A stretch of 64,000 nt of DNA from an uncultured delta proteobacterium. GTDB lineage: Bacteria; Desulfobacterota; Syntrophia; Syntrophales; Smithellaceae. Shown here piece by piece: positions 6,123-43,460 of this stretch. Numbering within the stretch: position 1 is the stretch's first letter; each line of letters opens with the position of its first letter. The notes under the pieces were generated by a model, which saw nothing but the letters and a program-made list of their open reading frames with translations, made no database searches and was not told the DNA's origin. The stretch spans positions 2,725-66,724 of the forward strand of contig CAIVQG010000055.1 in assembly GCA_903907985.1 (NCBI GenBank). Reading direction: 5' to 3'. A program made the translations under genes and the position numbers.

Positions 6123-6199
<77 letters not shown>

Positions 6200-10616: not shown

Positions 10617-12359
10617 CTAAACTTCCGGTGGCTGCTTTGCAGGCGGATTTAAACCTTCGGCAATATTTTTTTTGATTTCGGATACTATTTCCGCTAGAGA
10701 ATATATCGTTGTCTGGCCGGACTTTCTATTTTTCAACTCGACGTTTCCCGAAACCAGATTTTTCTGACCAATCGTGACCCTCAAAGGAATGCCGATCAGA
10801 TCGGCATCTTTAAATTTCACTCCTGCCCTTTCATCGCGGTCATCGAAAATAACTTCGATTCCCTCGGCAAGCAAGTCACGGTATATTTTTTCGGCGGCTT
10901 GAAAAACATCTTCCTCATTTACATTTACCGGAGTTACAATAACATGATAAGGGGCGAGCGGCATGGGCCAGACTATACCGTTGGCATCATTATTCTGTTC
11001 AATGCAGGCAGCCACGGTTCTTCCTATCCCAATTCCGTAGCAGCCCATAATCATTATTTTTTCCTGACCATCTTTATCCAGGTATGACGCTTTCAGTGCT
11101 TTGCTGTATTTTGTTCCCAGTTTAAAAACATGCCCGACTTCAATGCCCCGGACAAACTGAATACTCCCGCCGCAGCGCGGGCATTTGTCATTTTTTTCCG
11201 CAACGCGCAGATCGGCGAACGCTTCTACCTTGAAATCTCGTCCGATATTAACGTTCTTTAAATGATAATCTTCTTTATTGGCGCCGGTCACAAAATTAAC
11301 CATGTTCATTACTGAATAATCGGCAATAATCCTGGTTTTAATTTTTACTGCCCCGGCAAATCCCCGCGGAGCACCGGTGGCCTTCATAATCATTTCATCG
11401 TCGGCAAGTTCCAGTTCATTGGCCCCTAAATAATTTTTTACTTTAATTTCGTTGACTTCCTGATCACCGCGAATCAATATGGCGCAGTGCTGGCCATCGG
11501 CGTTAAAAATTAACGTTTTTACAATATCGCGGGGGCTTACTTTTAAAAAATCACTGACTTCTTCGATTGTACGCACATTGGGCGTCTGCACACTCTCCTG
11601 CGGCAGCCAATCCTTTTCTGTAATATTAACTTTTGGGGGTACGCTCACTTCAGCCTTTTCCAGATTGGCAGCATAAACACATTTGTCGCAAACGACCATG
11701 GCATCTTCGCCGGATTCGGCCATGACCATAAATTCATGCGAATATTTACCGCCGATGCTGCCGGAATCGGCTTCTACAGGCCGGAATTTTAAACCACAAC
11801 GTCTGAATATCTTGTTATAAGCGGCAAACATTTTTTCATAGCTAATTTCTGCCCCGGCCTCATCGGCATCAAAGCTGTAGGCATCTTTCATCCCGAACTC
11901 GCGGCAGCGCATCACCCCAAAACGGGGACGGACTTCATCCCGAAATTTGGTCTGAATCTGATAAAGATTACGGGGCAACTGGCGATATGTTTTAATATCA
12001 TTGCGAACAAGGTCAGTAATAACTTCTTCATGAGTGGGTCCAAGGCAATATTGCCGTTCATGACGATCACGAAAGCGGAGCAATTCTTTGCCGTAATACT
12101 CCCAGCGGCCTGATTCCTGCCAAAGCTCAGCCGGCTGAACCATCGGCATAAATACTTCCTGCGCCGAGGCTTTGTTCATTTCTTCACGAACAATTTGTTC
12201 AACTTTGCGAATAACACGATAACCAATTGGTAAATAAGAATATATGCCACTGGTTAATTTCCTGATCATGCCTGCCCGAATCATCAACTGGTGGCTTATG
12301 ACTTCGGCGTCCGAAGGAACTTCCCTTCCGGTGGGCAGAAACATCTCTGAATAACGCAT
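10617..12359 (-). CDS. proS: proline--tRNA ligase (bacterial type with insertion domain)
   Basis: It starts MRYSEMFLPTGREVPSDAEVISHQLMIRAGMIRKL and contains RDEVRPRFGVMRCREF. The C-terminal anticodon-binding domain is present. Length is 580 aa. Confidence 0.9.
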   Translation of the reverse strand: MRYSEMFLPTGREVPSDAEVISHQLMIRAGMIRKLTSGIYSYLPIGYRVIRKVEQIVREEMNKASAQEVFMPMVQPAELWQESGRWEYYGKELLRFRDRHERQYCLGPTHEEVITDLVRNDIKTYRQLPRNLYQIQTKFRDEVRPRFGVMRCREFGMKDAYSFDADEAGAEISYEKMFAAYNKIFRRCGLKFRPVEADSGSIGGKYSHEFMVMAESGEDAMVVCDKCVYAANLEKAEVSVPPKVNITEKDWLPQESVQTPNVRTIEEVSDFLKVSPRDIVKTLIFNADGQHCAILIRGDQEVNEIKVKNYLGANELELADDEMIMKATGAPRGFAGAVKIKTRIIADYSVMNMVNFVTGANKEDYHLKNVNIGRDFKVEAFADLRVAEKNDKCPRCGGSIQFVRGIEVGHVFKLGTKYSKALKASYLDKDGQEKIMIMGCYGIGIGRTVAACIEQNNDANGIVWPMPLAPYHVIVTPVNVNEEDVFQAAEKIYRDLLAEGIEVIFDDRDERAGVKFKDADLIGIPLRVTIGQKNLVSGNVELKNRKSGQTTIYSLAEIVSEIKKNIAEGLNPPAKQPPEV

Positions 12360-12416
12360 TGAACCCCCTTCTATTCATGATGGACTCATAAAAAGTCGTA
12401 AAATTAACAATTTTCA

Positions 12417-12543
12417 GACGACCTCGTATAAAGGCCGCAGGCAAGGCGCGCGAATATCGAGGAATGAGGCGTACTTAGCGGTACGCCGCAGTGACGCGGC
12501 GATGAAGCGCAACACAGCATCCGGCGTTTATACGAGATCGTCA
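12417..12543. repeat. copy A of a 125-bp palindromic (TIR-bearing) intergenic element; its end includes the ispG stop codon
   Basis: The terminal arms gacgacctcgtataaaggccg and cggcgtttatacgagatcgtc are near-perfect inverted repeats. There is an internal hairpin ggcgtac-N6-gtacgcc. By eye the core is about 85-90% identical to the second copy at 42472-42596. Confidence 0.7.
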
Positions 12544-13614
12544 TTCATTGTCCAACGATTCTATCTCTTCGAGTAAAACCGGTACAAAATCTTTTTCCGC
12601 TACCCTTTTATAGGCAACTCCCTTTTTAAACATCATACCAAAACCAGTGCCTCCCGCGATGCCTATGTCGGCATCTGCAGCCTCCCCCGGTCCATTAACG
12701 ACACAACCCATCAGCGCCACTTTTACATATTTTTTTCTACCGGCCAGAGCTTTTTCAATTTTTTCCGTCAATCCTAAAAGATCGATTTGGCAGCGGCCGC
12801 AAGTGGGACAGGAAACTATTTCAGGGCCAACTCTTCTTATTTTTAAAGAACGTAAAATTCCATAAGCAATCGGAATTTCCAGAAGAGGATTGCCGGTTAC
12901 AGAAACTCTAATTGTGTCACCGATTCCCTGATAGAGTAACGTTCCGATACCCAGCGATGATTTTATCGCGGCATCAACCAGAGTTCCCGCTTCCGTCACT
13001 CCCAGATGCAACGGATAATCAGTTTTCTCGGCAATGGACCGATAGGCTTCGATCATAATCGGCACGTCGGATGATTTCAGGGACAACTTTAAGTTACCGA
13101 AACCTTCCTCTTCAAAAAGCTCAATATTTTTCAATGCGCTGGCGACCAGAGCTTCTGCCGTAACACCGCCGTATTCCAGCACTAAATCTTTTTGCAATGA
13201 TCCTGCATTAACCCCAAGCCTGATTACAACTTCCCGTTCTTTCGCTACTTTGATTATCTCCCGGATTTTGTCCCTGGCAATATTGCCTGGATTAATGCGA
13301 ATGCCGTCAACTCCCTGCTTCATCGCATCAATTGCCAACTGATAATGGAAGTGAATATCGGCTATCAGGGGAATTCTGATTCTTTTCTTAATTTCGGCAA
13401 TTGCATCAACCGCTTCCTGATCAGGTACGGCGATGCGGATAATTTCGCAACCTGCGTCTACCAGTTCTTCAATCTGAGCAACTGTAGCCTTTACATCGGA
13501 AGTATTCGTGTTGGTCATAGATTGCACTGTTATCAGTGCATCTCCCCCGATAGGTACGCCGCCTAAATTGATCGTTCTTGTTTTCTTTCTTTTTATTCCA
13601 GACAAATCTTCCAT
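12541..13614 (-). CDS. ispG: 4-hydroxy-3-methylbut-2-en-1-yl diphosphate synthase (flavodoxin)
   Basis: Motifs PITVQSMTNT, ADIHF and SCPTCGRC, plus the GCVVNGPGE Fe-S ligand region, are present. Confidence 0.9.
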   Translation of the reverse strand: MEDLSGIKRKKTRTINLGGVPIGGDALITVQSMTNTNTSDVKATVAQIEELVDAGCEIIRIAVPDQEAVDAIAEIKKRIRIPLIADIHFHYQLAIDAMKQGVDGIRINPGNIARDKIREIIKVAKEREVVIRLGVNAGSLQKDLVLEYGGVTAEALVASALKNIELFEEEGFGNLKLSLKSSDVPIMIEAYRSIAEKTDYPLHLGVTEAGTLVDAAIKSSLGIGTLLYQGIGDTIRVSVTGNPLLEIPIAYGILRSLKIRRVGPEIVSCPTCGRCQIDLLGLTEKIEKALAGRKKYVKVALMGCVVNGPGEAADADIGIAGGTGFGMMFKKGVAYKRVAEKDFVPVLLEEIESLDNE

Positions 13615-40711: not shown

Positions 40712-41120
40712 ATTTATTCATCACTTTTTCAAGAACACAGCAGTATATAAACGTTCGATCAAGGCATAAAATACTTAATATTATTTAAGTTTTATACCTT
40801 ATCCTTTAATGATCACGGCCCGGGAGAATCCTTTCCTCTGAGCAAATGCTATCTATCAATTAAGATTGAGGTATAATAGTATATCCCTTTATAATATCAT
40901 CCAAGAAATAGTAAGTATTCGCAGAAAACCTATTTTCCCGCGAACTGATCATAACCTCTGGCCCAATTGATGTCAACGTGAAACTAGGGTAAAAAATACC
41001 GGCCTTTTCTATTGCACCAATCATTCCCCTCCGGACAGCTTACGGAAATTTGTCTTGCAAAAGGCATGGAAAGAAATTATAAAACCGCGCACCTTACATC
41101 TCACAGATCCGGAGGCAATT

Positions 41121-42458
41121 ATGAAAAAAGTTAACTCATCCGTCACAATTATAGTTATGATTACTGTCGGTATCATAATAATCGCCGGACTGGGCTGGCT
41201 TTATTGGGGAAATTATCTGGAAAGGGAAACTCCGTCCATTAAATCCAGTCAGGATATCAGCATGATTGGAAAACAAAAGAAACTGGAGGTAACATTTGCC
41301 GATCAAAAAAGCGGACTGTCTCAAATATATGCGGAAATAATTCAGGATAACAAGGGCCGGATTCTCGCTGCCGAAAACATTACTTCCCGAGGAAACAAAC
41401 AAAAAACAATATCCTTAACCATAGACACCGTCGCTCTGAAGTTACACGATGGCCCGGCTCAAATTAAATTTACGGCCACTGACCATTCTTTGTTTAAGAA
41501 TCAGACCATTTTATCTCAGCCGGTCAAAATAGATATCATACCGCCACAAATATATCTGCTCAACCCCATCAATCATGCCAATCAAGGCGGCACCTGTTTT
41601 ATTGCTTACCGGATATCAAAACCGGCCGCTTTAACCGGTGTTTATGTTAATGACTACTTTACTTCCGGTTATACGATGATGGTTGAAAACAAGCCCACGT
41701 CGCTCGTTTACTTTGCCATACCAATTGACGCTTCAAAAACAAAAACAACAATCAAAGTATTTGCGCGTGATACCGCCGGCAATGAATCCAGTATTGCCAT
41801 TCCCTGCCTGATTAAGGAAAAGAAATTTCGAGCAGATAAAATGAATTTGAGTGAAACTTTCCTGCAGCAGAAAATGCCGGAATTTCAGGCAATGATTCCT
41901 GCGTTACAAGGGAAAACACCACTGGAAATATTCACCTACGTAAACGGACAAATGCGTGACGATAATTTCCGCACACTACAGACAATCTGTCAAAAAGCTT
42001 CGCCTCAAAGACATTGGGAGGGAACATTCCTGCGCATGAAGGGAGGCCAACCGATGGCTCTGTTCGGCGACAAAAGAACATATATGGTCGGAAATAAACC
42101 AATAGGTAATTCCCTGCACGTCGGCGTTGACCTGGCATCGAATGCCCATGCCGCTATTGAAGCCGCCAATAATGGTATCGTCGTTTATGCCGGTGCCCTG
42201 GGAATTTACGGCAATGCCGTTATTATAGATCACGGCCAGGGTTTATTCAGTCTCTATGGGCATTTATCTGTAATCAATACTACAGTAGGAAAAGCAGTGA
42301 AAAAAGAAGAAGTAATCGGCCATTCCGGCATCTCCGGTCTTGCCGGAGGTGATCATTTACATTTCAGTATTCTTGCCGGCGGACAATTTGTCAACCCGCA
42401 GGAATGGTGGGATCCGCACTGGATTAACGACAATGTCAGCAAAAAAATGTTTTTCTGA
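41121..42458 (+). CDS. M23-family (LytM-type) peptidoglycan metalloendopeptidase with N-terminal TM anchor
   Basis: The C-terminal motifs HVGVDLA, IIDHGQGLFSLYGHLS and GDHLHFS are present. ATG 41121 follows a GGAGG SD; the track starts at TTG 41055. Confidence 0.8.
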   Translation: MKKVNSSVTIIVMITVGIIIIAGLGWLYWGNYLERETPSIKSSQDISMIGKQKKLEVTFADQKSGLSQIYAEIIQDNKGRILAAENITSRGNKQKTISLTIDTVALKLHDGPAQIKFTATDHSLFKNQTILSQPVKIDIIPPQIYLLNPINHANQGGTCFIAYRISKPAALTGVYVNDYFTSGYTMMVENKPTSLVYFAIPIDASKTKTTIKVFARDTAGNESSIAIPCLIKEKKFRADKMNLSETFLQQKMPEFQAMIPALQGKTPLEIFTYVNGQMRDDNFRTLQTICQKASPQRHWEGTFLRMKGGQPMALFGDKRTYMVGNKPIGNSLHVGVDLASNAHAAIEAANNGIVVYAGALGIYGNAVIIDHGQGLFSLYGHLSVINTTVGKAVKKEEVIGHSGISGLAGGDHLHFSILAGGQFVNPQEWWDPHWINDNVSKKMFF

Positions 42459-42471
42459 TAACACTAACTTT

Positions 42472-42596
42472 GATGGCCTCGCAAAAAGGTTGCAGGCAAG
42501 GCGCGCGAATACCGAGGAATGAGGCGTACTTGTCGTACGCCGCAGTGACGAGGGATGAAGCGCAACGCAGCATCCAGCCTTTTTACGAGGTCGTCA
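42472..42596. repeat. copy B of the 125-bp palindromic element; its end includes the rapZ stop codon
   Basis: The sequence is gatggcctcgcaaaaaggttgcaggcaaggcgcgcgaataccgaggaatgaggcgtac-ttgtc-gtacgcc...cagcctttttacgaggtcgtca. It has the same orientation and architecture as copy A. Confidence 0.7.
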
Positions 42597-43460
42597 GCTT
42601 TTGTTGATGTCGCGGTGTGTAACGTTGACAATATATTTCATTTCCGAAAAATGTGCACCTAACTGATTGGACATAACTACGGAACGGTGCTTTCCGCCTG
42701 TGCAGCCTAAAGCAACATTTAAGCGTACCTTGCCTTCCTTATCATATAAGGGGATTACAAAAGTCATCAAGTCAAAAAACTTTTTTAGAAATATTTTACT
42801 TCGTTCATTCTTCAAAACAAATTCACGAACAGCATCATTCTGCCCGTCAAACTCCTTTAATTCTTCAATAAAATACGGATTAGGTAGAAATCTTACATCA
42901 AATACAAGATCGGCATCAGCCGGCAGGCCAAAACGGTATCCAAAGGAAATAACATTCACTATTAATTTCTTATGAACTGAGGCCGGCAGAAATTGCCGTT
43001 GAACTATATCTTTAAGTTGATGAACATTTGTCGATGTTGTATCAATAACATGATCGGCCATCTGCTTGAGCGAGGATAATTTTTCTCTTTCCAGGCGAAT
43101 GCCGTCGATAATCGAACCTTTTGCGGAAAGTGGATGTGTACGTCTGGTTTCACTGAAACGATGCAACAGTGAATCTTCGGTCGAATCCAGAAAGAGAATT
43201 TCAATTTTATCGCCCTTTCCTTTTATTAAGTCGAAAATGCGCTTGTACTTTTCCAAAAATCCTCTTTCGCGCAGATCCATAACCAGGGCAACACGTTTTA
43301 TTTCGGGAGATGATTGGGCAGTTATGGCTAAAAATTTCGGCAGCAAAACGACCGGCAGATTATCGACGCAAAAAAAGCCGATATCTTCCAGTGCGCGGAG
43401 TGCCGTACTTTTACCGGAACCGGAAAGACCAGTAATGATTACAACGCGAAGATTTTTCAT
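42594..43460 (-). CDS. rapZ: RNase adapter protein RapZ (YhbJ/YvcJ P-loop NTPase)
   Basis: The P-loop [12 protein letters not shown] is present, along with VDNLP and [10 protein letters not shown]. Confidence 0.9.

Follow-up and report, generated by a model that had tools for sequence, protein, structure and literature searches.

The window analysed here is a stretch of 64,000 nucleotides from an uncultured delta proteobacterium of the Smithellaceae (contig CAIVQG010000055.1 of assembly GCA_903907985.1, positions 2,725–66,724). It carries one repeat element at two places, 12417–12543 (copy A) and 42472–42596 (copy B), in the same orientation. Copy A lies between two minus-strand genes, ispG (12541–13614) and proS (10617–12359). 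Copy B lies between a plus-strand M23 peptidase gene (41055–42458) and the minus-strand gene rapZ (42594–43460). Against Smithellaceae proteins, the window ispG shows no more than 93% identity; rapZ shares 94% identity with proteins from assembled genomes. BLASTN aligns the two segments with 87.7% identity over 122 nt, in agreement with the 85–90% core identity given by eye in a preliminary description of the window, and a pairwise alignment gives 87%. A 20-mer common to both copies occurs twice in the window, compared with 0.00 occurrences expected from 100 shuffles.

The inner left arm and the right arm of copy A, GACGACCTCGTATAAAGGCCG (12417–12437) and CGGCGTTTATACGAGATCGTC (12522–12542), are complementary at 19 of 21 positions. 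The central hairpin GGCGTAC/GTACGCC is present in both copies, with the loop TTAGCG in copy A and TTGTC in copy B, and one position of the terminal stem is T:A in copy A and A:T in copy B. The preliminary description had read all of these features correctly, namely the shared orientation, the 21-bp terminal inverted repeats, the conserved 7-bp stem with differing loops and the coordinated change in the terminal stem. Its span for copy A was too short. The real element is a long form of 164 bp, and the half-arm at about 12385–12398, taken for a degenerate neighbour, is actually the outer left terminal repeat of copy A. Copy B is a short form of 124 bp. The last three bases of each segment, tca, do form the TGA stop codon of ispG and of rapZ on the minus strand, as had been proposed, but only ‘tc’ belongs to the element; the final ‘a’ is the first base of a target-site duplication. 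The coordinates of all features are collected in Table 1.

Table 1. Features of the two element copies and of the adjoining gene signals in the window
Feature	Coordinates	Strand	Basis
Copy A, left target-site duplication ATTCAT	12373–12378		Identical to 12543–12548; single hexamer in the empty sites L245 and L246
Copy A, full long form, 164 bp (probable MITE)	12379–12542	+	Duplication and filled/empty alignment with L245 and L246; layout found in 71 members
Copy A, outer left terminal inverted repeat GATGGACTCATAAAAAGTC	12379–12397	+	Duplication immediately outside in 71 copies
Copy A, spacer between outer and inner left arms	12398–12416	+	Conserved within subfamilies
Copy A, inner left arm	12417–12437	+	Direct repeat of outer arm; pairs with right arm
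Copy A, conserved core, including near-invariant AGGCAAGGCGCGCGAAT and GATGAAGCGCAACRCAGCATCC	12438–12521	+	Alignments of copies
Copy A, central hairpin GGCGTAC-TTAGCG-GTACGCC	12468–12487	+	Both-side changes in 5 of 7 pairs (87-copy alignment)
Copy A, right terminal inverted repeat	12522–12542	+	Sequence and alignment of copies
Copy A, right target-site duplication ATTCAT	12543–12548		Sequence and empty sites
ispG stop TGA	12541–12543	-	T from duplication, GA from element end; replaces ancestral TAG
proS ribosome-binding site AAGGGGG, unaltered by insertion; start codon 12357–12359	12364–12370	-	Directly after TAG in empty sites
Copy B, left target-site duplication AACTTT	42466–42471		Matches 42596–42601 at 5 of 6 positions
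Copy B, short form, 124 bp, without separate outer arm and spacer (probable MITE)	42472–42595	+	Orthologous copies in L248, L249 and L250
Copy B, left arm GATGGCCTCGCAAAAAGGTTG	42472–42492	+	Sequence
Copy B, central hairpin GGCGTAC-TTGTC-GTACGCC	42523–42541	+	Sequence and fold
Copy B, right terminal inverted repeat	42575–42595	+	Sequence
Copy B, right target-site duplication AGCTTT	42596–42601		Sequence
rapZ stop TGA at element junction	42594–42596	-	Sequence and gene calls

In the family to which these copies belong, the six bases that follow the right arm are found again upstream. They stand either immediately before the left arm or, as in the majority of copies, 37–40 nt further left, just outside a third arm-like sequence that a spacer of ~19 nt follows. 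A 6-bp duplication matching at five or more of the six positions at these offsets is present in 81 of 125 copies (71 of the long form and 10 of the short form), compared with 10.8 expected when duplications are swapped between copies. Perfect duplications are found in 53 copies, compared with 1.5 expected. The duplicated hexamer reads A-W-N-N-W-T; of 79 sites, 75 have A at position 1 and 65 have T at position 6. This A....T preference is unchanged in copies that have no gene end nearby. At sites with another base at position 6, the two hexamers agree in 13 cases and differ in three, which places this base in the duplication and outside the element.

The insertion at ispG can be followed in relatives, for which we fetched and aligned four ispG loci (L244–L247; fetched loci are cited by their L numbers). 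Deleting 12379–12548 from the window gives a predicted ancestral junction that reads GAC AAT GAA TAG AAGGGGG TTCA ATG on the coding strand. In L245 (GCA_025361065.1) and L246 (GCA_053578255.1), both Smithellaceae with ispG 90–91% identical to that of the window, the site is empty and equals this prediction base for base. The ispG–proS spacer of these relatives is only 11 nt, which supports the earlier proposal that copy A lies within an ispG–proS co-transcript. In L244 (GCA_017973855.1) the site is filled by the same long form as in the window. A second pair of filled and empty sites is seen in syntenic loci, with L146 empty and L198 and L034 carrying a long-form copy. No empty rapZ site is found among the three relatives fetched (L248, L249 and L250), all of which are occupied, L250 by a long form without the core. 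These forms suggest that short and coreless elements are deletion products that arose after insertion.

Some occupied sites show further variation. The ispG stop site of L247 (3574–3755) holds a member of a different subfamily, 77% identical to copy A. It is of the short form, has an additional hairpin and lacks one of the two duplicated hexamers, which points to either a second, independent insertion at a hot spot or the replacement of the earlier copy. The copies of a sister lineage at the ispG site (L244:3565–3781) and at the rapZ site (L248:2067–2239 and L249:2067–2254) have the same extra small hairpins, for example TACCCTGAAGGGCACGCG inside an arm, and both window copies are free of them. 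Such inserts seem either to pass from copy to copy inside a genome or to enter the element at one fixed position.

The size of the family was assessed by a profile search over fetched loci, which were gathered by two independent core patterns, a 16-mer from the left half and a 22-mer from the right half. The 16-mer scan of the genome collection was permissive, and most of the listed matches are chance matches in G+C-rich genomes; BLAST and nhmmer picked out 16 true loci, all from Smithella, Smithellaceae, Syntrophaceae or Syntrophales metagenome-assembled genomes (MAGs), or from unclassified delta- or proteobacterial MAGs. The right-core 22-mer matches at least 120 contigs in the metagenome collection. 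The profile search gives at least 172 non-overlapping matches in 137 loci, of which 138 are near full length and 135 non-redundant, and the element is therefore not limited to the two window loci. All named source genomes of the copies are Smithella, Smithellaceae, Syntrophaceae or Syntrophales. Each half of the core is near-invariant in the set of copies gathered with the other half, so core conservation is not an artefact of the search pattern. The density is one further copy per ~37 kb of fetched DNA beyond the copy that recruited the locus, in line with the two per 64 kb in the window, and the copy number is predicted to be of the order of a hundred per genome. [quoted passage not shown]

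In the long form, about 164 bp, an outer left repeat GAYGRHCTCGTAAAAAGTC is followed by ~19 nt of spacer, a direct inner copy of the repeat, a conserved core of ~84 nt with the central hairpin, and the inverted right repeat. The arm GAYGRCYTCGTAAAAAG is found at both ends, inverted, in ~135 copies. Short forms such as copy B are without the outer arm and spacer. Family members are 122–164 bp long, and up to ~325 bp with nested inserts, and the core is G+C-rich. Only short ATG-led frames occur in the element. Many copies have lost the start codon, and differences in loop length shift the frame; with no conserved reading frame, the element is non-coding. An attC site or a retron RNA was considered and dropped, as a GTTRRRY core site is absent, neither an integrase nor a reverse transcriptase context is present, and housekeeping genes surround the copies.

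Unrelated cores and mini-elements of 45–85 bp are also bounded by these terminal repeats, with duplications of the same style. Examples are a 45-bp mini-element with the duplication AATATT (L028:3494–3538), two unlike elements in tandem that have AATCAT in common, present three times (L126:5206–5429), and a 67-bp arm-only hairpin with family ends (L238:3494–3560). Further families with these ends are found at L167:9023–9180, L232:6656–6790 and L187:7234–7420. Unrelated interiors with the same ends are as expected if one transposase recognises the arms, and they point to a superfamily mobilised by a single transposase. At L167:4273–4470 and L212:1–250, one element with family ends contains an internal tandem array of ~38-bp units (CCGCCGGGGGAGGGGAAGTTAGAGAGGAGTCCC), and another copy is packed with several G+C-rich GGGGAC...GTCCCC hairpins. 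Other small repeats appear to use the elements as landing pads.

Taken with the duplications and the filled and empty sites, both window segments are very probably copies of a non-autonomous DNA transposon, a MITE, specific to the Smithellaceae and related Syntrophales. Five of the six features that define MITEs are present, namely small size without a transposase, terminal inverted repeats, a duplication of fixed length, dispersed copies, and filled and empty sites; the sixth, a parent insertion sequence (IS), did not appear in the searches described below. The element is a new family of a well-known kind of element. Of the three identities put forward in the preliminary description, the MITE is the one that agrees with the terminal repeats, the 6-bp duplications, the filled and empty sites and the well over 100 copies; a repetitive extragenic palindromic (REP) element is contradicted by the size and the duplications, and a small-RNA gene is left unsupported. 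A palindrome of the REP or bacterial interspersed mosaic element type, or one derived from IS200/IS605, would move as single-stranded DNA by means of a RAYT or TnpA (HUH) enzyme. The element is indeed palindromic, abundant in intergenic DNA and often located just after stop codons, and the strand asymmetry of G.T pairs described below could fit a single-strand intermediate. RAYT and IS200/IS605 systems, however, are not known to make a target-site duplication, and here a 6-bp duplication is far above chance. The element also has true terminal inverted repeats, a length of 122–164 bp rather than 20–40 bp, and no conserved tetra- or pentanucleotide beside one end only. We regard movement by such a system as extremely unlikely.

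The coincidence with stop codons is explained by the junctions. The element begins with GA and ends with TC, and the hexamer begins with A and ends with T, and each junction therefore reads T|GA inward. A second-frame TAA is present in CGTAAAAAG, ten bases further into the arm. At the right end of 125 copies, long inward open reading frames (ORFs) end at the junction stop in 36 and at the +10 TAA in 15, 51 in all. At the left end, 10 end at the junction, 8 at +10 and 10 at +48 in the inner arm, 28 in all. Of 21 cases open to reconstruction, 12 already had a stop codon in the same register before insertion. In ispG, TAG became TGA on insertion with the protein unchanged, and for rapZ the flank of the window itself implies a change from AGT TAG to AGC TGA. 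The proS ribosome-binding site and the 14 nt upstream are unaltered at the ispG–proS junction. The coincidence comes from GA...TC ends joined to an A....T target and is a property of the whole family, not of a 3′-UTR element.

By a position-weight scan of the window, only ~5% of the target-like sites at which insertion is tolerable (21 of 422) are predicted to be in stop register, compared with ~20–38% observed. The excess probably reflects in part selection against insertion at other sites, and may in part reflect targeting. By gene orientation, 34 and 27 copies lie between genes on the same strand (one count for each orientation), while convergent genes flank 17 copies and divergent genes 28. 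We found no earlier description in the literature of a junction TGA restored by the duplication together with the element end; stop codons within MITE reading frames have already been described (PMC2229807, PMC6382973). Another essential operon junction that tolerates the element lies between clpP and clpX (L151:5106–5212). This copy is a deletion derivative that retains the outer arm, the spacer, the inner arm and the beginning of the core, and its junction TGA is the stop codon of clpP.

Several observations weigh against the MITE assignment. First, transposition is here deduced from sequence signatures, and the autonomous parent did not appear in any search. In ~1.6 Mb of fetched loci, no pair of arms (allowing up to 3–4 mismatches) with a matching duplication lies more than 325 bp apart, and the window has no IS-size element with these ends. 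Three scans of viral contigs gave only MITE copies or chance matches in coding sequence, and an all-against-all BLAST of the loci for a parent IS gave only syntenic segments. Two candidates were examined and rejected, the one in L238 being the 67-bp arm-only mini-element and the one in L151 the deletion derivative between clpP and clpX. The remaining points exceed what a decaying selfish element would require. Second, the palindrome covaries along its whole length. In the alignment of 87 canonical copies, changes on both sides occur in 30 of 35 pairs, compared with 11.1 ± 1.8 in shuffles (0 of 500 reach 30) and 7–10 in slid controls. Third, in 15 copies ATGACGAAG is replaced by a module AGCCTGCCCC-NNN-loop-NNN-GGGG, whose stem is found in four fully compensatory variants, GGC/GCC, CGC/GCG, GTG/CAC and TGC/GCA. 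Fourth, the copies at the rapZ site are 90–96% identical between genomes, while four-fold sites of rapZ are 65–68% identical, and in 5 of 8 pairs of orthologous loci the element is 90–99% identical compared with 77–87% for the mostly coding flanks.

Apart from the missing parent, these lines are what would be expected if the elements had a MITE origin and the host now maintained many copies as RNA structures acting in cis in read-through transcripts, under purifying selection in situ. As with ERIC or REP, such a structure could be a processing site for RNase, a 3′-exonuclease barrier or a weak terminator where genes end. Both strands of both window copies fold into one long imperfect hairpin, with z values of -3.4 to -5.4 relative to shuffles, and the consensus fold of the 87 copies is a single hairpin of six helices in which 95.8% of cells are paired. 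The optional module sits between GTACGCCGCA and GATGAAGCGC (in L054, L091, L083, L052, L128, L133, L226 and others) and could be a nested mini-repeat or a structural elaboration. In the same direction, copy B is closer to its orthologue (96% identical) than to its paralogue copy A (88%), which is against simple homogenisation within the genome, and gene 3′ ends abut the right end of the element more often than the left. On the window plus strand, G.T pairs outnumber A.C pairs by 124 to 36 in the 87 copies.

Other observations weigh against maintenance by the host. Among rare, presumably recent, states, G.T and A.C are balanced (13 versus 17), so the asymmetry rests on few inherited states. Read-through from adjacent genes would more often transcribe the strand opposite the G.T-rich plus strand. 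Differences between orthologues are not depleted in paired columns (22 in 70 paired compared with 20 in 64 unpaired), and only two pairs are compensated. In the closest pairs, conservation of the element does not exceed that of the flanks (88.9% versus 94.6%, and 94.5% versus 95.4%). The ispG site has been hit by two subfamilies, as in L247, and re-insertion at hot spots could mimic conserved orthologues. Template switching within a palindrome can yield compensatory changes without selection. Copies occur in all four orientation contexts, the 28 between divergent genes included. No terminator-like site, that is, a G+C-rich stem followed by a T run, is found in or beside either window copy, and copy A is not an efficient terminator at its site, because it occupies a former 11-nt operon junction upstream of the essential gene proS. 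We therefore consider it doubtful, if a possibility to keep in mind, that many copies are maintained by the host as RNA structures. The stronger form of this proposal, in which the ends and the choice of target are tuned to land on and regenerate stop codons and the covarying core with its modules is kept by the host for RNA processing or stability, appears improbable.

The same fold bears on whether the element is an independent small-RNA gene that forms a dispersed gene family and is transcribed from a promoter within the outer arm and spacer. The plus strand, which also has the G.T excess, folds better than the minus strand (-58.5 and -59.8 compared with -56.7 and -48.9 kcal/mol), and the junction T + TGAYG resembles a -35 hexamer, with a TAAAAK motif 16 nt downstream. 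However, no sigma-70-type promoter consensus is present in or beside copy A or inside copy B, the matches at copy B lying outside the element. The short forms are without the putative promoter region, and no terminator follows the hairpin. At E ≤10 the element gives no match to an Rfam family, a comparison proposed at the outset; the best scores, 15.4 and 13.1 bits, lie below gathering thresholds of 33.2 and 40, respectively. The only Rfam match in the window is an unrelated tRNA gene at 6126–6199 on the minus strand (67.5 bits). The duplications and empty sites show spread by DNA insertion, and the copies are found in either orientation relative to their neighbours. A small-RNA gene family is thus very unlikely.

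Among known elements, ERIC (also named IRU), a 127-bp MITE of Enterobacteriaceae, is the closest in form and genomic habit. Like the Smithellaceae family, it is an imperfect palindrome of ~125 bp over its whole length, lies in transcribed intergenic DNA, often 3′ of genes, occurs in either orientation with internal insertion and deletion variants, and is co-transcribed in the form of a long hairpin, as is probable for the Smithellaceae family. An effect of ERIC on mRNA stability by way of RNase E has been reported (PMC3184786). The two show no apparent relationship in sequence, although no direct comparison with the ERIC consensus was made, and the family is set apart by its flanks and host: ERIC is flanked by TA (PMC3184786) and is enterobacterial, whereas the present family has a 6-bp A....T duplication and hosts in the Desulfobacterota/Syntrophia. 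The third, outer arm and the spacer are features of the Smithellaceae family.

Chunjie of Geobacter uraniireducens Rf4 is a MITE from another ‘deltaproteobacterial’ lineage; its terminal repeats are likewise 21 bp long and its fold is very stable. It too can insert into an operon without disruption, and some copies overlap genes (PMC3184786, PMC10969869). It is 178–235 bp long and A+T-rich with 9-bp direct repeats (PMC3184786), compared with 122–164 bp, a G+C-rich core and 6-bp duplications here, and this difference in duplication length implies a different transposase; the two are distinct families. The element bcr1 of the Bacillus cereus group is a mobile repeat of ~155 bp with short direct repeats and a distribution that is not conserved among relatives, and compensatory changes preserve its long hairpin (PMC3184786). 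It differs in its 5-bp direct repeats and its Firmicutes host, and its transcription has been demonstrated. The Correia (NEMIS) elements of Neisseria, also MITEs, have terminal repeats of ~26 bp, compared with 21 bp here, exist like the present family in long and short forms, are co-transcribed with their neighbours and carry stop codons that limit fusion to host ORFs (PMC2229807). Correia makes a TA duplication and has an integration host factor site and known RNase III processing. MIRU of mycobacteria is likewise found at operon junctions, with ends that overlap the flanking stop and start signals and leave the polycistron intact (PMC3184786). MIRU units are 40–100 bp long, often in tandem, and contain small ORFs, whereas the present family is non-coding and forms no tandem array of one unit.

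A MITE origin suggests the following course of events. A transposase acting in trans would recognise the ends and make a staggered cut of 6 bp at an AT-rich A-N4-T target, and the hexamer would be duplicated. Recombination of one direct left arm with the other would probably give the short forms. Where an insertion spans a stop codon, the protein would be unchanged and the downstream ribosome-binding site intact. Such insertions would survive selection, even in tight operons, and this would give the pattern of elements that start at a stop codon. Read-through would place a hairpin of ~125 nt in the mRNA, with a putative effect on RNA processing or stability.

The assignment accounts for a repeat that recurs in Smithella and Smithellaceae MAGs, where it will fragment assemblies and mislead gene calling. 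Mechanical ORF lists cross the elements and yield spurious peptides, for example AMTKDEAQRSIRAFYEAV and MLRCASSFVIAAY at L151:1730–2730, and such peptides are likely in automatic annotations of Smithellaceae MAGs. The hosts are key syntrophic degraders of alkanes and propionate in digesters and sediments, and presence or absence of the element at defined sites offers cheap markers of strain and lineage. The shared terminal repeats point to an uncharacterised transposase that makes 6-bp duplications; IS481, IS1634, IS21 and the ISDol1 group are among the IS families with duplications of about this length. The ispG–proS site is a natural example of a transposon inside an essential operon at no cost, with the stop codon rebuilt and the next ribosome-binding site spared. 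If the core acts at the RNA level, this would be an ERIC-like system in a very different phylum. If the stronger form of the host-maintenance proposal holds, uncultured syntrophs would have a lineage-wide, MITE-borne layer of post-transcriptional control, in which even operon junctions of 11 nt are colonised seamlessly.

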